NCBI GenBank assembly: GCA_964016885.1 | Contig: OZ024746.1 | Span: 75,206,001-75,270,000 of the forward strand | DNA from: Eledone cirrhosa | Lineage: Eukaryota | DNA: 64,000 bases | Direction: 5' to 3' | Part shown: positions 2,787 through 54,064 of the stretch, one piece after another | Layout of the letters: each line of letters begins with the position of its first letter | Numbering within the stretch: the first letter of the stretch is position 1 | The notes under the pieces: model-generated | The model's database searches: none | Told to the model about the DNA's origin: nothing | The model's input: only the letters and a program-made list of their open reading frames with translations | Position numbers and translations under genes: made by a program

Positions 2787-3420
2787 TACGAGGGGGATCC
2801 AAAAAGTTTGTGGAAACAGTACATAGCTAAACATCATATGCTGGGATTTTGATCTCAATGTACCTGTAATATTCTATTACTAACGTGTCATAACTGTTTC
2901 TACTTTTGGCACAAGGCCAGCAATTATTCCAGTATATTACTGGTACTTTATTTTATCGACCCCGTAAGGATGAAAGGCAAAGTTAACCTCGGTTCTAACA
3001 TGAAACCTTAAATGCATGTTATAACGCGTCGCCACCAGTCGGAAGTCAGCACCCGCTCGAGCAACATGGCTTCCATCGAAACATCAAATTCATGGTGAAG
3101 CTAGGGTGGAAGAGCAACTAAATCATTGACGCTCTGGATCACGTTTATGAGGACAATGCCTCAAAGAAATCAACAACCGACAAGTGGATAAGTCGCTTTA
3201 GAAGTGGAAGAGATGAGGTTGAAGATGTAAAAAAAAAAGCTGCTTTGACATGGTTTAAATCGCATGGCCCTCGATTTTACACAAGTTGACTTACAGGCTG
3301 GTCTCAACGCCTGCAGAAGTATATTGACCTAGATGGAGCATATTTTGAAAAATAAACATAAGTTAAACCGTTTTTTTTCCAACTGCCCTTTTTTCCCCGA
3401 ACTTTTTGAAGCACCCTCTT
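2787..3420 (+). mobile_element. Internally deleted mariner (irritans/Hsmar2-like) with a nested SINE fragment
   Basis: TIR-like ends CGAGGGGGATCCAAAAAGTTTGTGGAAA and TTCCCCGAACTTTTTGAAGCACCCTC; transposase N-terminus NIKFMVKLGWKSN*IIDALDHVYEDNASKKSTTDKWISRFRSGRDEVED joined to C-terminus ALTWFKSHGPRFYTS*LTGWSQRLQKYIDLDGAYFEK*. Confidence 0.85.
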
Positions 3421-5813: not shown

Positions 5814-6414
5814 AAAAATCAATTGTATTCATGAAGCGTTGAGCAAGTTGTGAAATTTGAATGTGTATTGGTTTAACGGAAACTGCCTCAACATAAGTTT
5901 TTTTTTTAAATATAGAACATAGTCGAACAAGTTGGAAAGCAAGCAAACAACTAAATTTTGTAATTCTTCTGAAGCTCTACCATTCTTACCTCTACACCAC
6001 CTTTATTTTAAATGATGACATTGCCAAATTTTCCATGGGTTCCTTTTCCATGAAAAATATATCATTAAGTTTGGACTAACATAGTTCATGCAGTGAGTTA
6101 ATAAGCATGATTTATCAATTAAAAAGCGGGATTTATCAATTAAAAAACAGGATTTATCAATATAAAGATAAATATCATTAGCGTTAATGACAATTCTTGT
6201 AAAGAAGGCCAAGAGAGAGAACTCAAAATATAATTGATCAAAATTAAATGAACATAAATGTAGTAAGAACTGATTCAGAACCTTGGCAGTGACGGTGGCG
6301 ACTCCAGACATATGTTGGTCTTATTAACCGAAAAGATATAGTCTAACACCCAAGAATACCTAATATTGATAATAATTATCATAACTATAGTTATAATAAT
6401 GAAATCCAACTTAC

Positions 6415-6706
6415 TTATGGATGGCGTGGTAGGTGTTTGGTTACAGTCATCCCATTGTGACATGGGTATCACACAAGCATGACCTATGTTCGACCAAACT
6501 CGACTATCATTACAGTTTATCGACCAAATCTGTTTTCCTTGCACACAAAAATGCACCTTGGTGCAGTCATTTGGATCTCGTGTCCACTCAGATGTCCAAG
6601 GATCTCTACATCCTGGGTCAGCTCCAAAATTATCATCTTGGCTCTTGCTACACTGAACTAGTAATGAAACGAAAAATATGAAGAGTGAAGATTTCAAGTA
6701 TCGCAT
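6415..6706 (-). CDS. Exon 1 of a secreted chitin-binding (CBM14/peritrophin-A) protein: signal peptide plus first six-Cys domain
   Basis: ATG at 6706; hydrophobic leader MRYLKSSLFIFFVSLLVQCSKS; then CRDPWTSEWTRDPNDCTKVHFCVQGKQIWSINCNDSRVWSNIGHACVIPMSQWDDC, with six Cys and the DPxxC..F.C pattern of ChtBD2; PTTPS linker; phase-1 donor A|GTAAGT at 6414-6409. Confidence 0.88.
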
Positions 6707-6759
6707 GGTCTGTTAGGTTTGTCGTCTCAAATGAAAAGGCAGCTTCGTCAGATAGTTAC

Positions 6760-9806: not shown

Positions 9807-9886
<80 letters not shown>

Positions 9887-9887
9887 C

Positions 9888-9920
<33 letters not shown>
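9806..9920. repeat. (GATA)n microsatellite at the 3' end of Tx1-like copy 1
   Basis: Directly abuts the element end, 7 nt after a minus-strand AATAAA; no poly(A). Confidence 0.95.
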
Positions 9921-9921
<1 letters not shown>

Positions 9922-10184
9922 GTTTCTTTTATTTGCCACTAGGGCATCAAAAGTGGGACAAGTACAAAGGGGGGAGTTTACACAAAAAGGCGTCCTCAAT
10001 AAGGAGGAGGCAATAACAAAATATAAAAATAAAATAAGATATAACAAAAAATAAAATTTTTAACAAAATCCTCAATAGAGAGGAGGCGCCTTGGGGGGTC
10101 GCACACACCCCCGAAAAAAGTGTGCAACCCTTTTCCTCAGGAGCACAGAGAGGGGGTGCTCCCTCGTTCCTTCCTCTTTTCCAC

Positions 10185-13100
10185 CTACAGGCTTATGTAA
10201 AGAGAAGGCCCATTCACACGGGCCATTCTCGCCACTTTCACCCACCTTTCATAAAAACGACTGGGGTGCCGCACCTCTCTCTCCATCCTGATCCTTCTTC
10301 CGAAATGATATCGGAAGAAACGGACCAGTTGTTGGCCAGAGAGAAAGGTGCCTGACCTCAGTCCTTTCAGACGCGTCCACCATACAACCTCTTTCGCCAT
10401 GGCTATTACGCACAGAAACACCGCCTCTGCTTCATCTTTGAAGGGGGGAGGCGGCTTGATCATTACAATAGACTCGGTGGTCAACCGGATCGGTCCCACC
10501 CTTGACAGCAGTTGTTCGACATAGCCCCACAGATCGGCTACGCCCGAGCAGTGTACCAATGCGTGTGCAACGGTTTCCTCGTCGCACACGCATCTGGGAC
10601 AGATCTTTTTGGCGGGGTCCCTACCCGGGCGCCCGTGTCTGTAGAGCCTTTCTCGAACGGGTAAAGCCCCTCGGTAGCACTGCCAGGCCAGGGACTTCTG
10701 GAAGTTGTCCATAGGTCCCGGGCTGAATGTCCTACCGAACAGGCCGGCCAGTTCGTCCTCCTCCATGTCTAGGGCTTCTCCGAGGGCGTCGTCGCACCTG
10801 CTGCGTACCAGCCCTCTATAGAATGTTGCGGTGGAATCTCCACTGATAACCGGATCCGCCTGCCAGAGGGCGGTGAGCGCCTGGGCACACTCAGTGTGCC
10901 AGGCGCCCAGTTTTCTCGGTCTTTGCTTGACCCAGGATTGCAGCTCGGTGAGTGAGACGAGTCTGGGAAAGGTTCGTCTCACAAACGAGGCCCACACCGG
11001 TTGTCCGGTGAGGAATACGTAGAGGTGCCGTAGCCTTAATGCGTGTTTACGCATCATTAGCCACGGCATCCCCAGCCCTCCTTTCGAAGGGTGTTGACAG
11101 CAGATGGATCTCCTCACCATAGGAGCCCGCCCCTTCCAAAGGAATTGGAAGAGCGCGCGCTCCATCTTGGTGAGGGTTTCCCTTGGGCAGGGCACTACGG
11201 TCAGGCGGTAGTAGATGACGGACGCTATATAAGTGTTCGCCACCTCCGCCCGACCTTTCAGGGATAGTTTGCAACTGGCCCACTTCTGGGTCAGTGCAAA
11301 CACCCTGTTCGTAACCTCCGCCCAGTTTTTCTCCACCTGGAGGTCCGGTCCGAACCAGACCCCGAGCAACTTCACCGGGCCCTCCGTCCAGCGTCCGACG
11401 ACGCCATCGGAGGGCATCGGTCTGCCCCTCCACGTGCCGAGTTGCAAACCGATCGACTTGTCCCGGTTCAGCTTAGCCCCTGTGAACATTTCGTACTCCT
11501 CCAGTAAGGTGCCGACCGCCTCGATTTCGGAGGCCGTCGACACCATTACTGTCACATCATCGGCGTAGGCTGACACCGCTTTCCGCAATCCCGGTTCCAA
11601 AGGGATGCCCTGCAACAACTCCAACTTCCGCAGTAGTGGCTCGAGAGTCAACACATGCAGAAGGGAGGAGAGAGGGCACCCTTGTCGGATGGACCGCGCG
11701 ATTTTGAACGGCTCCGAGAGGTAGCCGTTCACCTTGACCCTAGAGCAGATGCGGCTGCTGTGCATAGCAGTGATCCAGCCCCTGAAAACGGGTCCGAAGC
11801 CTGCCGCCGCTAGCACCGCAGCCAGGTAACCATGGTCGACCCTATCGAACGCCTTTGATTGATCCAAGTTGATCAGAGCCCCACCAAAGCCGGGTTCGTT
11901 CCCAACCCTCTCTATGATGTATCGCATGAGGTGGAGGTTGTCATGGATGGACCTGGACGGGATAGCGCATGTCTGCGCATCTCCCACCAGGTTGCCCACG
12001 ACAAGCGCCAACCTCTTTGCTAGCACCTTGGCCAAAATCTGTAACTCTGTATTTAGCAGAGTTATGGGCCTGAAGTTACTTATTTCGTCCCCCTTGTTCT
12101 CGTCCTTCCTCACTAGCGTGACTACGCCCTTGGTCACAGTACAGGGAATTCTCCCGTTCTGTTGCCAGTTGCAGTAGACCGCCTCGAGGAGATCGGGGAA
12201 CAAGTCCGGCATAGCTAGATATAATTCGTAAGGAAGACCATCGAGACCCGGGGATTTGCGTTTGCCGCATTGGCCCAGCACGTCCTCTATCTCAGCGGCC
12301 GAAATCGGCTCCTCGCAAGACTTCGCCTCCCTGTCCGAGAGGCGCGGCAGGCCGTCGAGGTATGGACCGAAGTCCACGTTTCCAACCGGCTCCCCGCCCC
12401 TCCCGAACAGTCGGGTAAAGTGCCTTTGAAAGGCCTCACACATCTGCTTAGGCTCAAGAATCGCCCGTCCATCCAGATCTCGCAAAGACCGGATGGTGGA
12501 TTTAGTTCCACTGTTGGCCTCTGTCACGCGGGCCCAGCTAACAGCTTTGGCCCCCTCGTTCCCTAGAGCACGTATTTTACTTCGGACAACGCAGCCTTCG
12601 TGCTTCGCGTCGAAAAACTGACTCAAAGCCGTTCTCGACGCTAGCACTCTGGCCACGTCGCCGCTTCTAATTGCCTCTTCTACTCTATCTATTAGCTCCC
12701 TTTCCTTCCTATTCCTATCCGCAGCTAGAACCTTACTAAATTCAATGGAGACTACTCTAATCTCTCTCTTTAGAGATACCCACCACCTGCTGTTGACGAT
12801 CGCTCCAGTCAACCGTTCCTTAACTAACGTACTAATCCGATTCCTGTAGGCTTTACTTGCCGGCAAGGACAAGTTGAGCTTCCAGTAACCGGGGCCCTGT
12901 CTATGCGTTCTATCAAGGTTGACCATGCAGGTCACCAACTTGTGGTCTGAATAGCCAACCATGAGCATTTCTGGACAACTTAAAAAGTCCCTGTCCTTAT
13001 TTCTAACTAAAAATCTGTCTAGGTACGATCTAGATGATCCGCTGCGATTTGACCAAGACCAGGTTGGCACCGTCGGAAAATCTAGTCGAAATCTATCGGC

Positions 13101-13622
13101 CAGGTCAAATCGGCCGAGTAACCCCTTGAGGCTGTTGCACCCCTCTCTATCGGGACATGCCCCTGCATAGTCCCAACGTGCATCCAGGATACCATTCCAA
13201 TCCCCCACTAAAAGCAGGGAACGGGGCGTCCCTAGAAAAGACTCCAGACGCTGGAAAAAGTCGGGCCGCTCTGTCCCAAAAGGGGCATATGCGGCTATCA
13301 GCCTAAGGGCTCTACCTTCACCACTGCCAAGGTCCAGCACCACCAGTCGACCCCCTGGGTCCAAGTGAACTATCTGTGTTGCAAGGCCCATATGTTTTTG
13401 CAGCAGAACGACAACCCCACCCCCACCTCCGGGCTGACAGAGAGATGCGTGCATCTCAAAGTCGTCAAAGGTGGGGGCTAGCTGTCGCATGCTGCTGATC
13501 CGGGCCTCGCAGATAACCATCACATTTATAGATTGTGACCTGAGGTCATTTAGAAGCATTGCTTGCTTCCAAGACGAGCCCAGGCCACGCGCATTTAGAC
13601 ACCCTACTCTTAGCACAGCCAT
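10185..13622 (-). CDS. ORF2: AP endonuclease, reverse transcriptase and C-terminal CCHC zinc finger (1145 aa from MAVLRVG)
   Basis: APE motifs LNARGL, ICE, VGDWN, YLDRF, SDH; RT motifs KSPGLDG, FRPITLLN, LDQSKAFDRVDH, IRQGCPLS, AYADD; CPRC..ETVAHALVHC; Kozak-like accaacATGG at 13622. Confidence 0.95.
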   Translation of the reverse strand: MAVLRVGCLNARGLGSSWKQAMLLNDLRSQSINVMVICEARISSMRQLAPTFDDFEMHASLCQPGGGGGVVVLLQKHMGLATQIVHLDPGGRLVVLDLGSGEGRALRLIAAYAPFGTERPDFFQRLESFLGTPRSLLLVGDWNGILDARWDYAGACPDREGCNSLKGLLGRFDLADRFRLDFPTVPTWSWSNRSGSSRSYLDRFLVRNKDRDFLSCPEMLMVGYSDHKLVTCMVNLDRTHRQGPGYWKLNLSLPASKAYRNRISTLVKERLTGAIVNSRWWVSLKREIRVVSIEFSKVLAADRNRKERELIDRVEEAIRSGDVARVLASRTALSQFFDAKHEGCVVRSKIRALGNEGAKAVSWARVTEANSGTKSTIRSLRDLDGRAILEPKQMCEAFQRHFTRLFGRGGEPVGNVDFGPYLDGLPRLSDREAKSCEEPISAAEIEDVLGQCGKRKSPGLDGLPYELYLAMPDLFPDLLEAVYCNWQQNGRIPCTVTKGVVTLVRKDENKGDEISNFRPITLLNTELQILAKVLAKRLALVVGNLVGDAQTCAIPSRSIHDNLHLMRYIIERVGNEPGFGGALINLDQSKAFDRVDHGYLAAVLAAAGFGPVFRGWITAMHSSRICSRVKVNGYLSEPFKIARSIRQGCPLSSLLHVLTLEPLLRKLELLQGIPLEPGLRKAVSAYADDVTVMVSTASEIEAVGTLLEEYEMFTGAKLNRDKSIGLQLGTWRGRPMPSDGVVGRWTEGPVKLLGVWFGPDLQVEKNWAEVTNRVFALTQKWASCKLSLKGRAEVANTYIASVIYYRLTVVPCPRETLTKMERALFQFLWKGRAPMVRRSICCQHPSKGGLGMPWLMMRKHALRLRHLYVFLTGQPVWASFVRRTFPRLVSLTELQSWVKQRPRKLGAWHTECAQALTALWQADPVISGDSTATFYRGLVRSRCDDALGEALDMEEDELAGLFGRTFSPGPMDNFQKSLAWQCYRGALPVRERLYRHGRPGRDPAKKICPRCVCDEETVAHALVHCSGVADLWGYVEQLLSRVGPIRLTTESIVMIKPPPPFKDEAEAVFLCVIAMAKEVVWWTRLKGLRSGTFLSGQQLVRFFRYHFGRRIRMEREVRHPSRFYERWVKVARMARVNGPSLYISL

Positions 13623-13646
13623 GTTGGTGGTAAAGAGAAAAGGCAC

Positions 13647-15293
13647 TTACCTCTCTGCGTCCCGGGAAACGGGCCGCTCAATTTCCATGCTGGTTGGGGA
13701 TGGGTTGTTGGGTGGGGTTGTGGTTTGTGGAAGTGAAGGGGCATCGGTGTGTTGTGGGGTTGGGGTGTTTGTCGTTGAGTGGGTGTCTGGGTGGGGTGGG
13801 GGGTGAAATTTTTTAGGAGGACGCGGTTGATTGGTTTGGCGCAGGGGGGGCCCACGTCCTCCGTGAAATTTATTTTCAGTGTTTTGTACAAGTGCATTGG
13901 GACTTTTATCATTTTCAAATGAGGTAGTCCCACAGCAGTTATAAAGTTTGGCCCTTCAGTTTGGACCGAAGGGTTTGCTGAAATTGTTTTCCGTAATTCT
14001 TTGTTGTCTGTGTTCATGTATGTGTATTGTAAGGTCTTTTTTTGTGTAGCAGTTAGTGTTGTGTGACAGGGAGGGGTGGTTTGTGTGTAGTTTGTGTTCT
14101 CTTGGGGGGGGGGTTAAAGTTAACATGTGTGTCTGTGGTGCGTCTCCTCTTCTTTCTTTTTACTTGTTGGAAGGGATCTTTTTCGTCTTGCGACGAAAGA
14201 GGTTCGTCTTCCTTGTTGGGTGGGAGGGGTATGTTTTCTGGTAGTGTTTGCGGTGTGCGTGTTTTTGTATTTGTTTTGGGTGGGGAGGGATTGGGTGGGA
14301 CAGTATTCTGTGTTATTTTTTCACGTGTTTGTTGTTGTTGTTGTTGTGGTGGTGGTGGTGGTGGGGTTGTTGGTTTTTGTTGTTGTTGTGGTTGTTTTTG
14401 TTGTTGTAGTTGGGGTGGTGTTGGTGTTGGTAGCAGTGTTTTTTTCTGTGTGAGCTGGGGACAGGCAGCCCTCAGGTGACCTCTATTGCCACAGAGGTAA
14501 CAGGAGGGACGCCTACCCTCCACAATAATGTTGAGGTGGGTACGGTCATCCAGCATGACGCGCTCAGGGATTTGGGCGATGCGTTCTGGCCTTATTTGGG
14601 TCAGAACTTCGAGGCTCGTTCCACTGAACGCGTCGCCGGATGCCTTCCCTATTGAGATGAGGTTGTCCTCGTCTAAATTGAGGAAACCGGTTAGTAACCA
14701 CCAGTAGTTTATGTTTGGGGTGATGGTGGTTATCCATATCCTCTGGGTTTTTTTACCCATGTAGGTGGGGAAGAAGGTGTAGTGTGTGGACCGAATTGGC
14801 GACACAGAGTATTTTTTTGCCGCCAATTCGTCTTTCATCAATATGGATAAACTCCCATAGAGTTTATCCTTTTGTATGAAAGTGATGTCTCTCATCGCGT
14901 CTTTCAAGACTAACTGAGTTTCTGCTTGAGATGGTTGCGCTGGTTTCTTTGTTTTATTTAAAATTGTTCGGAATACGACAGTTCGTAATTCCGTCTGTCT
15001 TTTTAGCTCCGGAGGTGAATGTATAGAAAACGATCCGTTTTCGCCAAAAGACACATATTTCTTGGCTTTTTCCAGCATTTCTTTTGCTTTTGAAATATCT
15101 TCCAGCACATAAGCGACTGATAATTTAGCCGTTTGTGCAAAAGATATTTTGTTTTCGTTTTGGATATTAGTATTGTTTTGTTTCTCGTCGTTTGAGTTGT
15201 TTTCATCTTTGTTGTTGTTGTTGTCTTTCTCGTTTCGTGTGTGGATACTTGTGACGTTTGTGTTGTTGTTGTTTTTGCTGTCTTTATTGTTGC

Positions 15294-15324
<31 letters not shown>

Positions 15325-15501
15325 GTTTTCAAATTCTTGTGTAGTTGTGGCTACATCTAGTGGTCGGTCAACAGGTGAAGACAATTCTTCCTCTCTCTGA
15401 CCTCTGCCTTTGGCATCTGCTGCTGTGACAGTGGCAGGGGGAAGCTGTGAGTATGACTTCCCCTTTCCTTCTTTGATTGATGGTGAAGATGCTTCAGCCA
15501 T
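13647..15501 (-). CDS. ORF1 (gag-like, CCHC knuckle), split by two apparent -1 frameshifts in C-rich low-complexity tracts
   Basis: ATG 15501; CYLCGNRGHLRAAC knuckle; the downstream segments YTYMNTDNKEL..KPINRVLL and HTD..PQTTTPPNNPS..MEIERPVSRDAER* align with copy 2, mostly through synonymous changes, so ORF1 probably ends at TAA 13649-13647. Confidence 0.8.
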
Positions 15502-15720
15502 TTTTCTCAAAATAGGGTTTTTCGAAGTTTTTCGAAAGATAAAATGTTCACAATACTATTTCGCCCAAAGGCGCAGAATATTTTGAGAGACCGACCAGAT
15601 CAAAATTTGACCTGGCAGTCCCTCTACAAAATGATACAAAAATGAAAGTTTACAGTTTACAATTTCCGTATGAATTTAAACAAAAACTTACCGAGCGAGC
15701 TCAGCACATGTGTCCATCGT

Positions 15721-15724
15721 AGAG

Positions 15725-15779
<55 letters not shown>

Positions 15780-15780
15780 C

Positions 15781-15843
<63 letters not shown>

Positions 15844-15844
15844 C

Positions 15845-15897
<53 letters not shown>
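15721..15897. repeat. (GATA)n microsatellite between tandem Tx1-like copies
   Basis: 5' flank of copy 1 and 3' flank of the fragment at 15898-16157. Confidence 0.95.
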
Positions 15898-16154
15898 TAT
15901 TTCTTTATTAGCCACAGGGGCACAAAAGAAGGGGACAAATACAAAGGGGGAAGTTTACATACAATAAAAACGTGTAAAATGTTATCACAGATGGAATTTA
16001 AAAGTTAGTCGATTTTCCCCAATAGAGGGAGACAGTTTATATGGGTAACACAGACCCCCGAAAAAAATGTGCAACCCTCATCTCCAGGAGTACGAAGAGC
16101 TTGTACTCCTTTCCTCTCCTCCTCCTTTTCCTCAACCTACAGGCTGATATAGAG

Positions 16155-16157
<3 letters not shown>
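15898..16157 (-). mobile_element. 5'-truncated Tx1-like 3' end
   Basis: ORF2 end (SLYISL*) and 3' UTR homologous to copy 1; (GATA)n on both sides. Confidence 0.88.
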
Positions 16158-16196
<39 letters not shown>

Positions 16197-16950
16197 TAAA
16201 GAAACACTGGCCAACCAGACGTCCAGTTAAGTAAAGACAGAGGTGTCGGGACAAAAAAAAAATGAAATTAATTCATAGAAATATCGCTGAAAATGAAACA
16301 CGAAAGAAAAGAGAAAAATTGATTGAGAAAAGAACGTATAAGAGATGGGGGGGGGGGGGGGGGCAAAAGAGAAAGACAGAAAGAGAAAAATTGGTTGAGT
16401 AGAGAGCGTATGACAGAGATTGTGGGGGTGGGAGAAAGACAGAAAGAAAAATAGACTGTGTGTATGTGTGTGTAACAGACAGCCGGACGCACAAGAACTA
16501 AGAGAGAGAAGTAAATCAGTTATAATATAGTGCGTATGCGAAGAGAGACTAATGCAAAGCCAATTGTAAAGAGAGTAGCCCACGTTGACATTTATTCCGA
16601 ATATTTCCGTTTGACAGGTTCTGTGGTTTGTTGTCTCAGTCGCCAAAGGAAGGTGACCTTTTGTTCTTTGTTGCAGCTGTCTAAACAAAGACCACGTACA
16701 AAAATGGGCTGGATTGTTGACTATTGAACCAGCAAAAGAAAACCAAACACGATAGTAATATAGAAAGAGATTATTCAGTGCAAAGGTCACTACCAGCAGC
16801 AACATCAACTACTACACGAACCAAGGAGGAAACCACTGTGGGGGTCATGTGGCCTGCTAGAAATAGCAGCCAACATCTTCTTAAGTCACATCCGAAGAAG
16901 AAGAAGAAGAAGAAGAAGAAGAAGAAGAAGAAGAAGAAGAAGAAGAAGAA

Positions 16951-17650
16951 TGTATTTGCCACAAGAGCACAAGGACACGATACAAACACACTTTAGTGGT
17001 GGGTTACGATTGTGTATAAATGAAATAAGAAACACAAAATTATAAATAATAACAACAAAGAAAATATCTCCAATATGGGTGACAGCTATCTAGAACCAAT
17101 CAAGGAAGCCCACCGAAGCCTGCCTCACCCTGTACACAAAAGGCTATCTCTCAGCTATCGTTTCCCTCCCTACAGATGCATGCTAAGATTCGGCTCATTC
17201 ACGCGGGTCATGTTTGCAACATTCGTCCACCTTTCAACAAATTTATTGGAAGCAGCATTTCCCTCTTTGCCCCTACCATCTTTCTTAAGTTGATGAAGGC
17301 TTGGTCAGTGAGAAATGTATCTCTCTTCGGTCTTCTGTAGTCTCGCCCACTACACAATTTCTTTTACTATCACAGGAAAACTCTCTGCCGTTGCCGATAA
17401 GATAAGGCGGCGGGGAAGGTTTCTGAATGGACACGACCGATAACCGGACGCACCCCAACACAAGGTAACAGCAATGCGCAGGTACTGAACAAGTACATGC
17501 AGAAAGGTTTCGGTGCCTTACGCTCATCAGAATCAGGGATTGCTGGCGGCACTTCTGTGCCTGTAGAGTGTCTCAAACCGGCTATGCCTCAGGGTAGCAC
17601 TGCCAGGCTAGAGATTTCTAGAAATTGTTCATGGTCCTCGGCCCGAAAGT
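16951..17650 (-). mobile_element. 5'-truncated, diverged Tx1-like copy ending in (TTC)n
   Basis: 17590-17640 aligns with copy 1 around 10670-10725 (KSLAWQCY); ORF2 end RVNEPNLSMHL* (CTGTAG); (AAG)n at 16895-16950 abuts the 3' end. Confidence 0.8.
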
Positions 17651-17802
17651 TCTCCAGAAATACCAGTTTCATTGAGAAATCGCGTTTTTTTATGCAGTAT
17701 AACATAGCCATCACCGTCCCCCTTTCTATTTAAATTCTAAACAATGACAAGTTATTTCATTGATAAAATGGAAGATATTTTTCAAAGCCTCCGGAAATAA
17801 TT

Positions 17803-22964: not shown

Positions 22965-23170
22965 AAAGCTCTTCGTACTCCTGGAGATGAGGGTTGCACA
23001 TTTTTTTCGGGGGTATGTGTTACCCATATAAACTGTCTCCCTCTATTGGGGAAAATCGACTAACTTTTAAATTCCATCTGTGATAACATTTTACACGTTT
23101 TTATTGTATGTAAACTTCCCCCTTTGTATTTGTCCCCTTCTTTTGTGCCCCTGTAGCTAATAAAGAAATA
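22965..23170 (+). mobile_element. 5'-truncated Tx1-like 3' UTR inserted in (TATC)n with a 14-bp TSD
   Basis: Near-identical reverse complement of 15898-16102; TATCTATTATCTAT at 22951-22964 and 23171-23184. Confidence 0.9.
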
Positions 23171-24355
23171 TATCTATTATCTATCTCTTATCTATCTATC
23201 TATCTCTTTCCTACTCTGGAAGAAATTGGCTGTGTTCGGATATGGAGAGGGATGGGCTCCGCCAGGTTTAATATGTCTTAGACACGCTGTATGTCACGAA
23301 GGCTCCCTTACCGACTCCATCAGAAGTTACAGATGCACACATACATACATTTCAAAATGGTCAGATATTTAAACATCATGACTCTTTATGTTTTATGTTG
23401 ATATTTTTTTAACGAAGAAATAAATAATTACGATTTTGAATACGTTATTATACATTTAACTACTTTAAAATCATGAATAGCTGCTGAAATTCTTAAAAAT
23501 ACAGGGGGTTATATAATATTTGAAACCGTTTCAGAACCTAAGCGCGCGAAATACTGTTATTACATGTAACAGACTGCAATTACAAAACTGGTTTTCTTAA
23601 CATGTATTTCTTAGTTGAAATTGAGAATAACATGTTCGTTGTTTCTCATAAAATTAGCTTCTAACAATAATTTATGACAAAATCATAAAGTGATAATAAC
23701 AGTTATAGAGGAAAATAGACAACTAGGATATAATAAATCATCTTTTTGTTTTAAAATAGTGTCATACATGATTTATAGATATATATTTTGTTTGAATCTC
23801 TTAACGTGACTATGAAATAATGTATTTTCTTTCTCCTACCTTATCAATTAATATCAGTTATCCAACTTTAATAATTAGGAGATAGGTGTATTGGCAGAAT
23901 AGTAAGAACCTGTGAATTTTGATAAGGTCATTTCTTTACCTTTTGGGATCAGATCCCACCGAGATCGATAATATAAAGTATTTGTAAATTACAGGAATTG
24001 ATATAATCACTTTATCCGATCGTCTTCAATCATGTGATCTTGTACCTTATTTAGAAATCCATATTTTGACATCAAGATGAGGGAAAACATTTCAACGTAT
24101 ATTATAATTTGTTTACTCTAGTTAATCCCGCCGAGGTTAAATTTGCCTTTCATCCTTACGGGGTCGATAAAATAGAGTACCAGTAATACACTGGTTAATT
24201 GCTGGCCTTGAGCCTAACGTAGAAACAATTATAATTTTTTTACTCTAGACAGATAACTCCTAAACACATCGGTTTACAAATGTTTCTCTATATCTCTATT
24301 CCCCATTCTCTCAGTTTTAAGCATCACCTTGTGCATAGAGTCTCTGATAGAAAAT

Positions 24356-27074: not shown

Positions 27075-28195
27075 TCAGCTGTGCCGGGACTCGACAATCT
27101 CCCTGCGTCTCTTTGCCAGACACTTAGCATAGATTTTACCGGGTAGGCTGAACAAGGAGATCCCTCTGTAATTGGAACAATCTCTCTTGTCTCTCTTTTT
27201 GAAAATTGGGATTATCACTCCCAATTGCCATTGCTTAGGTACCTTTCCAGAAATCCAGGCCACCCGGCACACATGAGTCTGCCAGAGAATACCTTCTATA
27301 TTTAAGGCTTTTAACATCTCGTGTCGGATTTCATCTTCCCCAGCGGCCTTGTCACATTTGAGCTCTTTAACTGCTCTTGTGATCTCGGCTTCTGAGACAT
27401 TAGTCACCGCTCCCACATGCACCTCGTGTGCATAAGAAGATGCTGTTGTGATCGGGTTTAGGAGATCAGCAAAGTATTCTCTCCACCTCGAGAGGATGAA
27501 CCTTTCTGAAAAGAGAAACCCTGATGCGTTCCTGATAACAAGTATGAAGATTGACTTATTATTATGAAATCGGTGGAACACTTCATTTGCTGATCTGAAG
27601 TTGGATTCCAGCTTAACCCCAAAGCCCTCCCATGTCTTAGCTTTGGACGCCTTTACTGTCTCTGCTGCGATTCTTCGTGCCTACTAGTACCGCAAGGGCA
27701 AAAAGAAGCACTTATTTCCAAGCCAAGCTTTGTAGGTCTCTTTCTTTGCTCTGATGGGATCTTTGATCTCATGATTGAACCAAGGGGTCCCCCCGGCCAT
27801 CCAGCCCCACACCAAGAATCTTTCGCCCACAGCATTTAACGGCTGAAGCAGGAACTGCCGAGCTGAACAAACTCAACGTCCTCAGTTAGCTCATGGAGTT
27901 CTCTGAATTTAGATGCAATAGTATCTTCATACCTGGTCCTGACTTCCTTATCCACCAATGCTTCCAGCTTTATCCTGTAGGTCAACCTCGATCTGCCAGT
28001 TTTCATTGGCTTTAGATAGTCTCAAGTTGCAGATAACAGGGTGGTGATCAGGTGAGAGCTCAGTCCCTCTCTCTAACGCGAACATCCATCACAGAATCAA
28101 GAGACAATAACAGAATCAGAGACAATAACAAATTCAATTATTGATCTCTATCCCTGATTCCCCTTGTACTATGTATATTTATGGATGCCTCTGGG
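27075..28195 (-). pseudogene. RTE (Rex3/Expander-like) LINE internal fragment
   Basis: RWREYFADLLN...KAAGEDEIRHEMLK...GKVPKQWQLGVIIPIFKKRDKRDCSNYRGISLFSLPGKIYAK; degraded APE region upstream. Confidence 0.85.
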
Positions 28196-36144: not shown

Positions 36145-36625
36145 AATAATGGTTTCTTTATTTCCACAAGGGCTAACATGAAGAAGAACATTACAGACGG
36201 CACAGAACGGTACAGGGCGATACAAAGTGGGTTTTGATCGTGTTAAAAGGTTATAACAAGAAAATAGAAATTTGTAAAAACAAATTAAAAATTCAAACAA
36301 AAATTCCCCAATAAGAGGGAAACCTCCGAGGATCACTCGTGGCGAAAACCACACAAAAGACCACGGCCACCCTGACCACCAGGGCAAACGCCCTCTCTGT
36401 TCTCCCACTCCTCTGTCAACAGGCGCATACTCAGAGCGGGCCTGTTTACTCGGACCAGACTTGCCACTTGATTTCTTTATTAGCCACACGGGGCTGACAT
36501 CGAGAAAACATTAAATATGCCCCAGGACGGCACAGGACATTACAAAATGGGCTTTTTCAGAAAACAAGAAAATGTAAAAATTTATAAAATAGTGAAAATT
36601 TCCTAATCGGAGTGAGACGTTCGAG
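36145..36625 (-). mobile_element. Two tandem 3' fragments of a third Tx1-like subfamily, the left one ending in (ATT)n
   Basis: VASLVRVNRPALSMRL matches the ORF2 end VARMARVNGPSLYISL; both 3' ends carry GTGG..AATAAAGAAA like the other copies. Confidence 0.7.
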
Positions 36626-37232
36626 GGTTACCCAAGCAAGTTTTGTATGGCGAACTGTTGCAAGGCAAACGCTTACGGTGCAAACCACACCAGCGCTTCA
36701 ATGACTACCTGAAAGATTCCTTGATGAAAGTCAACATCAACACGGAGACATGGGAAAATCTTGCAGCCGATAGAGCCCTGTGGCGAAATATCATAGCTGC
36801 TGGTGTTGTGGAATTTGAAAAGAAGCAGAGGGTCTATGCTGAAGCAAAGTTAGTAGAACGAGGTTTGAAAGTAACTCTTACCCGTGGAAATGGGGGCATG
36901 TATGTATGTCAGAGGTTGGGCTACTAAACGATAGCAGACGTCATACTCATGGAAATAACACCTTTGAGTACCCCCATATACCTTGATTTTGCATGTGGCA
37001 TCTTCACCAAAATGTGCCACTCTACAAGTGGGCTAATACGGCACCGCAGGGCGTGCCATATCAACCAGACTCAAGCAAGTCGGAAACTTAACTGCACTCT
37101 GTGTGTTATGGTATGTAAGTTACTTCCTGGTTTGATTCACCATCTAAGGTGGCATCAACTTCAACATCAATAACATGTTTTGGGAGTTTTCTGTATGTCT
37201 TATGTGTTTCGTTCTGAGAAGTGGCCGTACTG
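36625..37232 (+). pseudogene. RTE LINE 3' fragment with (TATG)n tail
   Basis: LPKQVLYGELLQGKR...WENLAADRALWR followed by degenerate C2H2 fingers; ends AGTGGCCGTACT then (TATG)n. Confidence 0.8.
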
Positions 37233-38594: not shown

Positions 38595-38827
38595 GGGGAA
38601 AGGGAGAGAGAAAGAGAACCATACGCTTTAGTATGCTATGTTTTGCGATGATGATGCGCGTAGCGATTGTGTTGACAAGATGGTGGTGTTATTGTTGTTG
38701 GGGTTGAAGGAAGCAATGTTTCTGATGAGGAAAACATTAGTGATGGCTATGATGGTGGTGGCACCGTCAGTGATTATGATGTTGGTGATAGTGGTAGTGG
38801 TTGTGGTGATGATGATGGCGTTCGTGT

Positions 38828-41800: not shown

Positions 41801-42790
41801 ATTGGTGTTGGAGATGGTAGTACTAGATGTATTGGTGTTGGAGATGGTAGTACTAGGTGTATTGGTGTTGGAGATGGTAGTACTAGGTGTATTGGTATTG
41901 GAGATGGTAGTACTAGGTGTATTGGTGTTGGAGATGGTAGTACAAGGTGTATTGGTGTTGGAGATGGTAGTACTAGGTGTATTGGTGTTGGAGATGGTAG
42001 TACTAGGTGTATTGGTGTTGGAGATGGTAGTACTATATGTATTGGTGTTGGAGATGGTAGTACTAGATGTATTGGTATTGGAGATGGTAGTACAAGGTGT
42101 ATTGGTGTTGGAGATGGTAGTACTAGGTGTATTGGTGTTGGAGATGGTAGTACTAGGTGTATTGGTGTTGGAGATGGTAGTACTAGGTGTATTGGTGTTG
42201 GAGATGGTAGTACTAGATGTATTGGTGTTGGAGATGGTAGTACTAGGTGTATTGGTGTTGGAGATTGGTAGTACTAGTTGTATTGGTATTGGAGATGGTA
42301 GTACTAGGTGTATTGGTGTTGGAGATGGTAGTACTAGTTGTATTGGTATTGGAGATGGTAGTACTAGGTGTATTGGTGTTGGAGATGGTAGTACTAGGTG
42401 TATTGGTGTTGGAGATGGTAGTACTAGGTATATTGGTGTTGGAGATGTAGTACTAATTGTATTGGTGTTGGAGATGGTAGTACTAGATGTATTGGTGTTG
42501 GAGATGGTAGTCCTAGGTGTATTGGTGTTGGAGATGGTAGTACTAGATGTATTGGTGTTGGAGATGGTAGTACTAGGTGTATTGGTGTTGGAGATGGTAG
42601 TACTAGGTATATTGGTGTTGGAGATGGTAGTACTAGGTGTATTGGTGTTGGAGATGGTAGTACTAGATGTATTGGTGTTGGAGATGGTAGTACTAGGTGT
42701 ATTGGTGTTGGAGATGGTAGTACTAGGTATATTGGTATTGGAGATGGTAGTACTAGATGTATTGGTGTTGGAGATGGTAGTACTAGTTAT
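38828..42790. repeat. 30-bp minisatellite, about 132 units (ATTGGTGTTGGAGATGGTAGTACTAGGTGT)
   Basis: Exact 30-nt period with a +1 indel near 42264 and a -1 indel near 42446. Confidence 0.97.
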
Positions 42791-43211
42791 GACAGTGGTG
42801 GTGGTGTGATGGTGGTAGTGGTGGTTATGAACCTCTAGGTAGTCAGAAAAGAAGGAAGTCGGCGCCGAATTTGGCCCCGTACTTAAGGTCTGTTAGCGCC
42901 ACAGGGGCCAACGAGGGTCCCTATTGGGCTATTGTTACATCTGATGTTGATATGTTGTTCGTGGGGTGGGGTTAGATGTGTTTTAGGTGTGGTTACGTCA
43001 TTTTATTTATATAATGTATTCATGTATGTATGTATGTATGTATGTATGTATGTATCAATGTATGTATGTATGTATGTATGTATGTATGTATCAATGTATG
43101 TATGTATGTATGTATGTATGTATGTATGTATGTATGTATGTATGTATTCATGTATGTATGTATGTATGTATGTATGTATGTATCAATGTATTATGTATAT
43201 ATGTATGTATG

Positions 43212-47978: not shown

Positions 47979-48139
47979 AGGGGCGGTGGAATTGGGGGTC
48001 CAGGTAGATAATACACCCCCCCCGCCCCCGAATAATTGTTTTTCCCCAAACTACCAAAACACGCATCTATTTGTATATGCGCTACAACTTATGTACATTT
48101 TATATAGAGATAGATATAAATGGGAGAGACAGATATAAA

Positions 48140-51100
48140 TTTCTATTTATTTGCCACCAGGGCATCAAAGATTGGGACAAATACAAAGGGGGGAGTTTAC
48201 ATACATTTAAAAAGACGTGTAAAAAACATATAACAAATTAAATTTAACAATCGATGTCCTCAATAGGGAGGGGTGTTGACATGGGTCGCACACACCCCCG
48301 AAAAAAATGTGCAACCCTCCTCTTCAAGAACACAAAGAGCGGGTGCTTCCTTCCTCTTCTCATTCTTCTCCTCTCTCACCTACAGGCTGATATAGAGAGA
48401 AGGCCCATTCACTCGGGCCATTCTCGCTACTTTCACCCACCTTTCATAAACCTTGCTGGAGTAGAGCACCTCTCTCTCCATTCTGATCCTTCTTCTAAAG
48501 TGGTACTTGAAAAAAAAGACCAGTTGTTGGCCGGAGAGAAAGGTGTCTGACCTCAGCCCTTTCAACCTTGTCCACCATACAACTTCTTTCGCCATAGATA
48601 TCACACAGAGGAAAACCGCCTCTCCTTCGTTTTTGAAAGGGGGAGGCGGTTTGATCGTGACAATGTTCTCGGTGGTCAACCGGATTGGTCCCACCCGCGA
48701 CAGTAGTCGTTCCACATAGCCCCACAGGTCAGCAACGCCCGGGCTGTGTACAAATGCGTGTGCGACGGTTTCCTCGTCACGCACGCATCTCGGGCAGATC
48801 TTCTTCGAGGGGTCCCTACCCGGGCGCCCGTGTCTGTAGAGCTTGTCCCGAACGGATAGAGCTCCTCGGTAACATTGCCAAGCCAGGGACTTTTGCGAGT
48901 GTTTTCTCTGGGCAAGGTACGACGGTCAAGCGGTAGTAGATGACGGACGCTATATAAGCGTTCGCCACCTCCGCTCGACCTTTCAGGGATAGTTTGTACT
49001 CGGCCCACTTCTGGGCGAGTGCAAACACCTTGCCCATTACCTCGTCCCAGTTTTTCTCCACCTGGAGGTCCGGTCCAAACCAGGCCCCGAGCAGCTTCAC
49101 CGGTCCCTCCGTCCAGCGTCCGACGATGCCGTCGGAGGGCATCGTTTTGCCCCTCCACGTCCCGAGTTGCAATCTGACGGACTTGTCCCGGTTCTGCTTG
49201 GCTCCTGTGAACCTTTCATATTCCTCCAGTAAGGTGCCGATCTGCCCGATTTCCGAGGCGCACGACACCATTACTGTCACGTCATCGGCGTAGGCCGACA
49301 CCGCTTTCCACAATCCCGGTTCCAAGGGGATGCCCTGCAACAGCTCCAGCTCGAGAGCCAACACATACAGGAGGGAAGAGAGAGGCCATCCCTGTCGGAT
49401 GGATCGCGGGTTTTGGAACGGCTACGAGAGGTAGCCGTTCACCTTGACCCTCGAGCAGGTGTTGCTGCTGTGCATTGCAGCAATCCAGCCTCTGAAAACG
49501 GGTCCGAAGCCTGCCACCGCAAGCACCGCATCAAGGTACCGATGGTCAACCCTATCGAACGCCTTAGATTGATCCAAGTTGATCAAGGCCCCACCAAAGC
49601 CGGGTTCGTTCCCTACCCTCTCTACGATGTATCGCATGAGGTGGAGGTTGTCGTGTATGGACCTGGACGGGATTGCGCATGTCTGTGCTTCTCCCACCAG
49701 GTTCCCGACGACAAGCGCCAACCTCTTCGCTAACACCTTGGCCAAAATCTTTAACTCTGTGTTTAGCAGAGTTATGGGCCTGAAGTTATCTATGTCATCC
49801 GCCTTGTTCTCGTCCTTCCTCACCAGTGTGACTACGCCCTTGGTCACAGAACTGGGAATTCTCCCGTTCTGTTGCCAGTTGCAGTAGACCGCCTCGAGGA
49901 GACCGGAGAACAAGCCCGGCATCGCTACATAAAGTTCGTATGGTAGACCATCGAGACCCGGAGATTTGCGTTTGCCGCATTGGCTCAGCGCTTCCCCTAT
50001 TTTAGCGGCTGAAATCGGCCTCTCGCAGGTCTTCCCCTCCCCGTCCGAGAGCCGCGCCAGACCGTCGAGGTATGGACCGAAATCCATGGCCCCACCCGGC
50101 CCGCCGCCCCTCCCGAACAGTCGTGCAAAGCGCCGTTGAAAGGCCGCGCTCATCCGCTCAGGTGCAAGGATCACGCGTCCATCCTGGTGCTTCAAAGACC
50201 CAATCGTGGACTTGTTTCCATTTTTTGCCTCTGTCACTCGGGCCCAGCTAACAGCTTTGGTTCCCTCGTTACCCAGAGCACGTATTTTACTCCTGACAAC
50301 GCAGCCCTCGTGCTTCGCATCAAAGAACTGGTCTAGGGCCGTTCTTGACGCCAGCACGCCGGCCACGTTGCCGCCACTCCTAATCGCCTCTTCTACTCTA
50401 TTTGTTAATTCCCTTTCAGTTCTATTCCTATCTGATGCTAATTCCCGACTAAAACCTATCGATTCTATTCTAATTTCTCTCTTGAGAGAGCCCCACCACC
50501 TGCTGTTGACAATTGCCCCCGTTAAACGCTGCTTAACTAGTGTGCTAATCCGCTTACTGTAAGCTTTGTTTGTCGGTAAAGACAAGTTTAGCTTCCAGTA
50601 ACCGGGTCCCTGTTTATGAGTTCTATCAAGGTTGACCACTCCGGTCACCAGCTTGTGATCCGAATAGTCAACCATGAACATTCGTGGACAGCTTAATATG
50701 TCCCTATCCTTATTTCTAACTAGGAACCTATCTAGGTACGACCTAGATGTTCCGCTAAGATTAGTCCACGTCCACAGTGGCACAGTCGGAAAATCTAGTC
50801 GATATCTTATCGGCCAGATCAAATCGGCCGATTAATCGTTTGAGGCTGTTACACCCACTCTATCGGAACATGCCCCTACATAGTCCCAACGTGCATCCAG
50901 GATACCATTCCAGTCCCCCACTAAAAGCAAGGAGCGAGACGTTCCCAGGAAATTCTCCAGCCGTCGGAAGAAGTCCGGTCGCGGTGTCCCAGATGGGGCA
51001 TACGCTGCCACCAGCCTGAAAGCTCCACCTTCACCACTGCCGACGTCTAAAATCACTAGTCGACCCTCCGGGTCCAGGTGTACCTCCTGTATGGCAAGAC

Positions 51101-53375
51101 CCAGGTATTTTCGCAGCAGAACGACAACCCCACCCCCACCCCTCGGCTAACAGAGAGATGCGTAGATCTCAAAGTCGTCGAAGATGGGGGCCAGTTGGCG
51201 CTCGCTGCTGATCCTGGACTCGCAAATAACCATTACATCCACTCTGTGCGACCTGAAGTCATTTAAGAGTTTGCCCTGTTTCCAGGACATTCCCAGGCCG
51301 CGTGCATTCACACATCCAACTCTTATATTGGCCATGTTGGTGCTGAAGAGTTAAAAAGGAAGAGGAAAGGAAATTACTTACCTCTTCGACTCCTGGGGAC
51401 CAGGCTGCACAATTTCCATGGGGGTGTTGGAAGGGTTGTTTGGTGGGGTGGTGGTTTGTGGTGGGGTGAGGACATCAGTGTGTGGTGGGATTAGGGTGTT
51501 TGGTGGGGTGTGGGTGGCTGGTGTGGGGGTGGGGAACATCTCAATAGGACGTGGTTAAGTGGTTTGGTGCAGTTGGTCCCCACATGCATTGGATGGTTCT
51601 TTTTCAAAGTTACATAGGTTTCCGTTGGGACCCTAATCATCATTAGGTGCGGTTTGTTCGCTGCGTAGGTGAAAGTGATCCCTTCGGTTTCCACCGAAGG
51701 GTTATTTTCTATTGCTTTCATCAACGTTTTATTGTTCTTGTTAATGTATGTATAGAGTTTTTGTTGTGTTGTGTTTGTTTTTGTTTGTTGTTCTTGTGCG
51801 TGTTTGCGTTTTGTAGTATGTGTTATGTTTTGGGGAGGGGTGGGTTTTTTTGTTTGTGATGTTTGTTCTGTTTGTGCTGGTGGTTGTGTGTTTGTAGCAT
51901 TTTTGTTAATGTGGTGCCTTTTTTTTCCTTTTCACCTGTTGAAAGGGTTCTCCCTCGTCGTCACTGGGTGACGTTGATACGGAGTCCTCTTCCGTGTTGT
52001 TGGGGAGGGGTATATTTGGGGTTTTGTTGTGGTTGCTTTTGTATTTGTTTTAGGTGGGGAGGGGTTGGGTGGAACAGTGTTTTGTGTTGTTATTTTTCCG
52101 TGTTGTTGTGGTTGTTGTTGTTGTGTTGGTGGTGGTGGTGGTGGTGGTGGTTGTGTTCGGGGTTGGCAGAAGAGCCTTTTTTTTTTTACTCGTTAATTGA
52201 GGACAGGCAGCCCTCAGGTGACCCCTGCTTAAGCAGTGGTAACATGACGGCCGCCTTCCCTCCACTGAAATGTTTATATAAGTTAGCCCGTCCAGAGGCA
52301 CGCATTGTGGGATATTCGCTATTCGTTCTGGGCTCATTTGCACCAGAACTTCTACGGTGGTCCCACCAAATACACCTCCGGAGGACTTTCCTATTGAAAT
52401 TATCTTGTCTTCGTCAAAGTTAATGATTCCACATAGTACCCACCAAATATTTACATTTGGTGTGATACTCATTATTTTTATTCTTTGTGTCCTTTTTCCC
52501 CTGTATGTGGGGTAAAAGGTGAAGCGGGGGGACACAATGGGTGCTACCGAGTACTTTTGTGCTGTTGACTGGTTGTTCATTAGCACCGAAATGCTACCAA
52601 ACAGTTTACCTTTTTGTATGAAGGTTAAGTCCTTCATTGCATCTTTTAGAACCAGCACAATTTCATTTTGTGATAATTGAGCTGGTTTTCTTGTTTCGTT
52701 CGATATTGTCCTGAAAACCACAGTTTTCAGGACAGCCTCTCTACGTAATTCCTGTGGATAATTGATGATAAAAGCACCGTTTTCGCCAAAAGTCACGAAT
52801 TGTTTTGCGTCTTGTAGTAGTTGTTTAGCATTTGTTATGTCTATTGGCGTGTATAGTTCGTTTTTTTTACAGTCTGTGCGAATGTTGTTTTGGTGTTGTT
52901 GTCTTTTTTGTTGCTGTTGTTGTTGTCACTGTTGGTAATATTGTTCATGTTTTCCTTGGTGTTGCTATTGTTGCAGTTGTTGGTTGTGGTGTTATTGTCA
53001 TTGTTCTTGTTGTTGGTGCTGGTATTATTTACCGGGTTTGGTTTCGTGGTTTCGATATTTTTAACGTTTTTCGATGATGGAGGGGGGGGGGGAAGGCTGC
53101 AAGCTTTGTACTCCTACCTTCCCTCCACCACTTTTCTTAGTGGGCGTGGCACTCACGACAGTGTGCGAGGTGGAAATGGCATCCATTGCCACCAAGTCTA
53201 CAGTTTTGAGATGGAAATTGAAAATTTCGCCCCAGAAAGGGACGAAAATTAGTTGACTCAACGTCTGACGGCCCAGGCAAGGGGTTAAACTAAACAATGT
53301 TATTAAATTGAGCAATAAACTCACAGTTTTTTTGACAATAATCCGTAAAAGTCCGAAGCGAAGTAAATCATGTCT
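48140..53375 (-). mobile_element. Near full-length decayed Tx1-like LINE, copy 2 (diverged subfamily)
   Basis: ORF1 from ATG 53186 with CYHCLSRGHLRAAC; ORF2 from ATG 51335 to TAG 48380 with frameshifts and a deletion of about 470 bp near 48893. Confidence 0.92.
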
Positions 53376-54064
53376 ATATCAAGTGGTAATTGATATAGAG
53401 GCGGGATTGGAAGAGAGTTCCGTGTATTAGATATAGAGAGGGTGAGAAATTGATATTTATTTATATATAGAGGAGGATTGGAACAGAGTTCGTGTAATAG
53501 ATATAGAGAGGGTGAGAGTTTGGCATTAATTGATATAGAGAGTGGTATTGGGAGAGAGGTACGGTTGATGTAGAGAGGGGGAGTTTGGTGGTAATGAATA
53601 GAGTGAGAGGATTGATAGAGATAGATATTGATAGATATAAACAGGGGGAGAGTTTGGTAGTGATGGATAGAGTGAGAGGGAATGAGAGAGTGTTGCTTGG
53701 TAGATATAGAGAGGGGAGTAGTTTGGTCGTAATTGATATAGAGAAGAGGAGAGTTCGGTGTCAATTGATATAGAGAGGTGTATAGGAAGAGTTCCGTGTA
53801 GTAATATGTGTTTTGTTTGTTTCTTCCCAAACTACCAAAAAACACATCTATTTGGATATGCGCCACAATTTATGTACATTTTATGTTTATTGCATATCGA
53901 AGTTTTCTGGCCATTTTAGAGTACAAAAAGCTAAACTAATCACTACAACTAAATTGTTCAATCCCCCCCCCCCCCCTCCCACCACCACCACCACCACCAT
54001 TCAGAAATGCTTCCACTGCATATGCTAATCGTTAACATTATATATGTACGTATGTACGTATGCA

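Follow-up and report, generated by a model that had tools for sequence, protein, structure and literature searches.

Splice-like signals around ORF2 of a Tx1-like LINE in Eledone cirrhosa and in related families

The window analysed here is a stretch of 64,000 nucleotides (nt) from Eledone cirrhosa (assembly GCA_964016885.1, contig OZ024746.1, positions 75,206,001 to 75,270,000). Its minus strand carries a full-length long interspersed nuclear element (LINE) with two open reading frames (ORFs) at about 9925-15720, here called copy 1. A decayed relative, copy 2, occupies about 48130-53380 on this strand and is 76-79% identical to copy 1 (Table 1). ORF2 of copy 1 encodes 1145 amino acids (aa) with an apurinic/apyrimidinic (AP)-type endonuclease and a reverse transcriptase (RT; Pfam Exo_endo_phos and RVT_1), together with a zf-RVT match that falls below the zf-RVT cut-off. 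Its best match among solved structures is human L1 ORF2p (E 2e-47; R2 at 2e-18), and its closest named relative is from Argonauta hians (63%). The N-terminal AP-type endonuclease, the RT and the C-terminal zinc-binding region are those that the L1 group and the Tx1 clade require. ORF1 is separate from ORF2 and contains a CX2CX4HX4C zinc knuckle, read from the translation. A Pfam search of ORF1 gave no match; it is homologous to ORF1 of two related families introduced below, A (E 1e-14) and B (E 2e-10).

Copy 1 and fragments at 16140 and 22968 lie within (TATC)n, and a fragment at 17170 ends in (TTC)19; the flanks of copy 2 are degraded. As read from these insertions, the target preference agrees with published accounts of Tx1 families that insert into microsatellites (PMC4494074; published work is cited here from excerpts). 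The element belongs to the L1 group. We keep the label at Tx1-like, on structure and target, because our RT tree, a quick one, had no named Tx1 families among its rows. ORF1 of copy 1 is broken by a premature stop (14055-14053) and copy 2 is decayed, so neither copy is intact. No relatives were found among viral contigs.

An earlier note on this DNA, made from the letters alone, proposed that the whole of ORF2 is bracketed as one GT-AG intron, whose removal would leave an ORF1-only RNA. The signals on which it relied are where it placed them. The donor AG|GTAAGT at the end of ORF1 (D1, GT at 13650-13649) agrees with eight of nine consensus positions, and no other donor on the sense strand of either copy scores better; the score is our own match count against the donor consensus rather than a trained model. 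The ORF2-stop TAG (10187-10185, then G) comes first among 112 candidate acceptors in copy 1 and second among 93 in copy 2; this ranking covers YAG sites downstream of D1 and uses a similarly self-made scoring by pyrimidine content and context. Thirteen to fourteen of the 18 tract positions in these two copies are pyrimidines. The interval between donor and acceptor is 3466 nt in copy 1 and, because about 470 nt of ORF2 are deleted, 3002 nt in copy 2 (donor 51381, acceptor 48380). CTGTAG|G also recurs at 16142 and 17175 in the two neighbouring fragments, as the earlier note had reported. By eye, copy 1 has no clear CTRAY branch point.

Further splice-like sites lie nearby. The 5' untranslated region (UTR) of copy 1 holds a 68-nt intron-like segment overlooked in the earlier note, with a donor TCG|GTAAGT at 15691 and an acceptor TTTGTAG at 15624 that is the top of 36 in the 5' part of the element; the 5' UTR of copy 2 carries GTGAGT. 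The first-ranked of the 93 acceptors in copy 2 is a pyrimidine tract with CAG, 39 nt from D1 and 8 nt before the ORF2 ATG, where copy 1 has AC. We rejected a 39-nt intron joining D1 to this CAG, which would fuse ORF1 to ORF2 in copy 2, since it is probably too short and has no counterpart in copy 1.

Conservation between the two copies is weak evidence for these signals, and so was the two-copy case of the earlier note, because 230 of 327 fourfold sites (0.70) are identical between them. The probability that the 5-7 free sites survive by descent is 0.08-0.17. On the minus strand the motif AGGTAAGT is present at two places, both of them ORF1 ends, and its count in the window is at chance level (3 matches against 2.94 expected). 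It is unusual only in position, not in number.

More distant relatives provide independent comparative support. A scan of prokaryote genome contigs yielded tandem LINE arrays in one metagenome-assembled genome (MAG; G001), from which we took 36 regions on 17 contigs, one of them (C16) only partly. These elements, whose ORF2 is 40% identical to that of the window, form two families, A (L090) and B (L081), and the arrays are evidently eukaryotic DNA binned with a prokaryote genome. Both families and the window element fall in one 16-row clade with a Shimodaira-Hasegawa-like approximate likelihood ratio (SH-aLRT) support of 100 in the quick tree; a further locus, L032, was rejected as a member of this close clade. 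In family A, TAA G|GTAAGT places a perfect donor one base after the ORF1 stop in 65/65 copies, while the two bases that follow take four states. The register differs from that of the window element, and the stop precedes the donor instead of lying within it, so this donor cannot have arisen as a by-product of TAA. A second donor, GTRAGT, lies about 15 nt past the ORF2 stop in 61/61 copies, and 236-263 nt beyond it, about 260 nt into the 3' UTR, stands a pyrimidine tract whose letters vary and which ends in TAG (59/61; one exception has TAA there and the other gave no match). This acceptor ranks first of 129. Several 5' UTR types of family A also carry TCG|GTAAGA with T-rich CAG acceptors, including TTTCAG|G. 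Family B has CAG|GTAAGT about 40 nt past its ORF2 stop and, 144 nt on, an acceptor ranked first of 131.

As controls we used distant L1-group loci (24-32% identity), some of them near-duplicates of one another. A donor scoring 8 or 9 of 9 stood at 0/47 of their ORF1 stops and 1/61 of their ORF2 ends, and in 0.65% of 21-nt windows within ORF2; TAG|G ended 2/64 of their ORF2s. Fisher tests that counted only families A and B as unbiased gave p = 0.04 for D1 under this strict score and p = 0.0015 for the donor past ORF2. One distant locus (L005), among the three that qualify under the looser criterion given below, carries GTAAGT immediately ahead of its ORF1 stop. Its ORF2 stop is donor-like (G|GTAATT), and its 3' UTR holds CTGAC as a branch-point-like motif with the acceptor TTTTCACAG|G; another locus (L040) has the same junction. 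L005 hints that the layout may extend beyond the 16-row clade.

A number of results weigh against a functional intron spanning ORF2. Under a looser GTRAGT criterion, 3/52 distant ORF1 stops qualify and the test for D1 is not significant (p = 0.14). The family A copies are arranged in tandem and are 87-100% alike over ORF2 and the 3' UTR, so closely related that we count them as one lineage, and the ORF1 stop of family B lacks a donor (score 5). The pyrimidine tract that the earlier note described holds for copies 1 and 2 and not family-wide; it is missing in the 17170 fragment and in a six-contig loose-end subfamily of one sequencing run (X5), which does keep CTGTAG|G in exact register between unrelated flanks. 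A competing AG (AAG or CAG) lies 7 nt upstream of the ORF2-stop TAG, being CAG in about 62% of the depth of another run (X1), so the exact junction could shift. The terminal Leu of ORF2 is part of a hydrophobic protein end common to relatives, and the predicted spliced C-terminus is not the same in copies 1 and 2. A search of sequencing runs listed none of RNA, which argues neither way. Four contig-only sequencing runs, of DNA or of unrecorded type, were compared with the window; the joint 10185-13651 is not among the joints listed (15 of 391), nor is a variant at the splice sites among those listed (40 of 1841), and with lists of this extent neither absence proves anything. ORF1 depth in these runs is far below that of ORF2, and contig depth cannot rank the parts. 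The family A arrays in the 36 MAG regions held no copy that lacks ORF2 or a UTR intron, and 3.1-kilobase (kb) units on contig C9, considered as ORF2-less copies, were rejected as 5'-truncated. The family A 3' UTR intron is kept in 61/61 copies, which is hard to reconcile with routine splicing of the RNA that encodes ORF2p; rare splicing, degradation of the spliced bicistronic RNA or a cis-element within the intron may account for its retention. The proposal of an ORF2-spanning intron gains comparative support from family A and from the 0/47 controls.

How splicing would alter ORF1p depends on the reading frame of its tail. The earlier note had the donor overlap the ORF1 stop and the last Arg codon rebuilt across the junction, which is correct in one frame (B, 13647-13955). 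It does not hold in frame A, where the conserved C-terminal domain of ORF1 sits (12 synonymous changes against 1) and which in copy 1 stays open through the donor until a stop at 13612-13610. Frame B needs a frame shift in both copies, and the tail region itself does not separate the two frames. ORF1 searches with a word index found one full-length relative, and a search for the C-terminal domain at 91-293 aa found none. An ORF1 relative, P0053, ends in QGK, a hint only, which would fit the donor in frame A. The junction peptide that the earlier note gave for copy 1, WKKRKERGSTPSLCS, is wrong, as is the corresponding probe, because four A, not five, follow the acceptor; its own frame gives WKRGRNEG... 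instead. In both copies ORF2 shares its frame with the TAA that lies within the donor. The sequence CACCAACATGG before and over the ORF2 start (13620-13630 and 51333-51343, minus strand) is identical in the two copies, and the spacer differs by 18 nt.

Judged from these sequences, the splice-site architecture of this Tx1-like lineage is real and probably under selection, and it extends further than the earlier note described. Regulated splicing that joins D1 to an acceptor on or beyond the ORF2 stop, yielding an ORF1-only mRNA as in the Drosophila element copia, is the explanation we lean towards. We propose that the host spliceosome would make this joint in part of the element RNA, while unspliced RNA would provide both ORF2p and the template for retrotransposition. 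The spliced mRNA would supply the excess of ORF1p that a LINE particle needs. With its junction at or near the ORF1 stop, it would be expected to escape nonsense-mediated decay, an expectation that rests on the 50-nt rule. Splicing would leave ORF1p unchanged in family A, and in the window family the last few residues would depend on whether the tail is read in frame A or B. Cis-preference would prevent ORF2-less RNA from being copied back into the genome, and forms spliced in the 5' UTR, having no promoter, would be dead ends of the kind described for human SpIREs (PMC5860796); we infer that the signals persist for these two reasons. The tissue-specific silencing suggested in the earlier note found no support.

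More tentatively, an entire lineage of animal Tx1-like LINEs, reaching from octopods to at least one other host, may use partial splicing in the manner of a retrovirus, through near-consensus donors at the ends of ORF1 and ORF2, acceptors on or beyond the ORF2 stop, and introns in the 5' UTR, with ORF1p made from spliced mRNA and only unspliced RNA retrotransposed. If so, these would be intron-retaining LINEs that must export or select unspliced RNA. An L1-group lineage with splice sites retained at its ORF boundaries over 60% protein divergence would represent a second solution to ORF1p:ORF2p dosage, convergent with copia. It would also offer a natural route to HAL1-like elements and a point of host control. 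It raises the question of how an element copied through RNA keeps its introns.

The same sites can be accounted for in other ways. The donors could be selected sites for the U1 small nuclear ribonucleoprotein (snRNP), mostly without splicing, that suppress premature polyadenylation or hold RNA in the nucleus, the acceptor on the ORF2 stop being incidental. Such a role would suit donors that are more strictly conserved than the pyrimidine tracts and the count of intron-less copies in family A, which is zero among 61-65. It also has precedents, since premature termination in EVD, a copia-type element, is suppressed when U1 binds (PMC5580714), and human L1 keeps a rarely used donor (PMC5860796). 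However, every lineage also has a top-ranked acceptor behind ORF2, and family A keeps tract and TAG while the letters of the tract turn over. Copy 1 contains no AATAAA or ATTAAA between D1 and its 3' end for U1 to mask. We consider this reading unlikely, if the strongest of the alternatives. Slightly more doubtful is coincidence combined with coding or RNA-structure constraint, where TAA, TAG and the CT of the terminal Leu supply parts of the motifs and purine/pyrimidine hairpins serve re-initiation or recognition of the 3' end. The family A donor lies outside the stop codon, its other donor and its acceptor are non-coding, all are kept, and none of the 47 distant ORF1 stops has such a donor. 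Shared descent of the 5-7 free sites at the probability given above, a motif count at chance level and the selection of the window family for having the feature would nevertheless all fit coincidence, as would the hairpins that folding predicts across the acceptor (z -1.7 and -2.4) and, in copy 2, across the donor (z -2.1). The purine-rich stretch that the earlier note likened to a splicing enhancer is predicted to form hairpins with the pyrimidine tract, and two subfamilies do not retain it. Yet shuffled sequences fold as well as the donor hairpin of copy 1 (z 0.6), and no hairpin is predicted in the 17170 fragment.

The sites might also be real but used in other pairings: as short UTR introns, from a 5' UTR donor to the pre-ORF2 acceptor to give an ORF2-only RNA, or from D1 either to host exons or to the CAG that lies 7 nt before the stop TAG. 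A bicistronic RNA spliced in its 3' UTR could then be degraded as a brake. UTR introns of 68, 144 and 236-263 nt look textbook-like, and family B has its UTR pair without D1. In copy 2 the best acceptor stands before the ORF2 ATG and the GTGAGT of the 5' UTR could serve as its donor, but that acceptor is absent in copy 1 and in family A. No donor of copy 1, copy 2 or family A is stronger than D1, which has no conserved acceptor nearby, and use of the upstream CAG would still excise essentially all of ORF2. We hold these pairings to be the least probable of the three alternatives, and ORF1-only mRNA made by splicing to be the better account.

LINEs are generally thought to need a full-length, unspliced bicistronic RNA, with splicing a harmful accident (PMC5860796). 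The nearest functional parallel lies elsewhere. Drosophila copia makes its GAG-only RNA by splicing out POL (PMC5580714), and in copia and the Arabidopsis Ty1/Copia element EVD (PMC5580714; bioRxiv 10.1101/2023.05.27.542554) an intron of about 3 kb over the enzyme region gives an RNA for the structural protein only, with U1 binding and avoidance of nonsense-mediated decay as part of the design. Those are long terminal repeat (LTR) elements with a single gag-pol ORF, and their splicing was shown experimentally, whereas that of the bicistronic window element is predicted. Being non-LTR with two ORFs, the element falls outside that group, although it may operate as copia does. Among LINEs, the Tx1 clade (Kibi, Koshi and crocodilian microsatellite-targeting families; PMC4494074) shares two ORFs, an AP-type endonuclease with RT, and insertion into microsatellites, and the (TTC)n target of Koshi is that of the 17170 fragment. 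The excerpted account in PMC4494074 mentions neither a splice architecture nor a (TATC)n target.

Human L1 and its SpIREs (PMC5860796) also have functional donor and acceptor sites in LINE sense RNA, including introns within the 5' UTR, and their spliced forms are dead ends. There the sites are cryptic and seldom used and fall within the 5' UTR or ORF1, unlike the near-consensus sites at ORF boundaries that recur here at 40% ORF2 identity. The predicted spliced RNA, comprising 5' UTR, ORF1 and 3' tail, resembles HAL1 (half-L1; PMC5753468). HAL1 elements are genomic non-autonomous families, in contrast to our finding of no ORF2-less copy in the 36 MAG regions and no such joint among the joints listed. 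The antisense introns of TART (PMC1636488) likewise belong to a non-LTR element and recur in size and spacing across subfamilies, but they are non-coding and from a different clade. Introns have been named in L1, Tad, kangaroo-1, Penelope and Athena transcripts (PMC1636488), Arabidopsis LINEs are reported to produce many isoforms (PMC13547354), and 13 L1-Tx1 families were counted as recently active in Octopus vulgaris (PMC13282606). We found no report of an ORF2-excising intron in a LINE in literature searches without subscription papers or Repbase Reports, which does not prove novelty.

Table 1. Features of the LINE copies and fragments in the window
Feature	Positions	Strand	Remarks
Copy 1, full-length two-ORF L1-group (Tx1-like) LINE	9925..15720	-	ORF2 open, ORF1 interrupted
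5' UTR intron-like segment, 68 nt	15624..15691	-	donor TCG|GTAAGT at 15691; T-rich acceptor ending TTTGTAG
ORF1, N-terminal 482 codons	14053..15501	-	CX2CX4HX4C zinc knuckle; ends at premature stop
ORF1 C-terminal conserved domain, frame A	13610..14113	-	open through donor, overlaps ORF2 start; matches ORF1 relative P0053, E 3e-6
Alternative ORF1 tail, frame B (that of the earlier note)	13647..13955	-	ends in TAA inside donor
Donor D1, copy 1	13645..13652	-	AG|GTAAGT
ORF2, 1145 aa	10185..13622	-	AP-type endonuclease, RT and zf-RVT (below cut-off); ends in TAG
Candidate acceptor on ORF2 stop, copy 1	10184..10209	-	pyrimidine tract and CTGTAG|G; competing AG 7 nt upstream
3' UTR	9925..10184	-	purine-rich start, predicted hairpins, AATAAA at 9933-9928
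(TATC)n microsatellite at copy 1 3' end	9807..9920	.	likely target
(TATC)n microsatellite at copy 1 5' end	15720..15897	.	common to neighbouring fragment
Copy 2	48130..53380	-	decayed; internal ORF2 deletion
Copy 2 donor D1	51376..51383	-	AG|GTAAGT
Pyrimidine tract and CAG before ORF2 ATG	51343..51367	-	copy 2 only
Copy 2 candidate acceptor on ORF2 stop	48379..48404	-	CTGTAG|G
5'-truncated fragment within (TATC)n	15900..16157	-	retains CTGTAG|G
Diverged subfamily fragment	16950..17659	-	(TTC)n tail; retains CTGTAG|G, no pyrimidine tract
3' UTR-only fragment	22968..23173	+	inserted in (TATC)n

Several observations on these elements stand apart from the splice sites. Stems in the 3' UTR recur between copies (10085-10165, 48280-48350 and 16030-16110, all on the minus strand), and one of them pairs GGAGCAC with GTGCTCC in copy 1 but GGAGTAC with GTACTCC in the 16140 fragment, changed on both sides. 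These stems are a possible recognition element for ORF2p, with mixed folding z-scores (-0.7 to -2.7). In family A, a perfect 6-bp hairpin (L090, 8462-8477) carries the ORF2 stop in its loop. A minority of copies have the loop TTCG, and their ORF2 then continues as far as a TAA within the donor that follows. Instead of a donor at its ORF1 stop, family B shows strong ones some 215 and 300 nt into ORF2 (L142, 6287 and 6372), a possible displaced equivalent of D1.

The contigs that hold families A and B (C3-C19; L081-L117, L121 and L125) come from a MAG filed as a bacterium and comprise several hundred kb of head-to-tail, mostly intact eukaryotic LINEs, in which 5' UTR/ORF1 modules have been exchanged on nearly identical ORF2s. 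Host contamination is their probable origin. An Rfam search of L090 and L081 found no RNA gene at the array spacers. Around a distant L1-group element (L118), U1 small nuclear RNA (snRNA) genes lie on either side, at 3036-3199 and 9961-10137 (Rfam E 6e-41 and 2e-22), which suggests a LINE associated with U1 arrays.

Elsewhere in the window, a frame at 6275-6712 (minus strand) has a signal-peptide-like start and a cysteine-rich stretch, which we take to resemble a chitin-binding domain; it is probably a host exon. Fragments at 27075-27680 (minus), 36616-36927 (plus) and 54786-55142 (minus) resemble, by eye, other non-LTR reverse-transcriptase proteins. An array of about 4 kb with a 30-nt unit (38676-42892) is open in several frames on both strands, and may be a minisatellite or a mucin-like exon.

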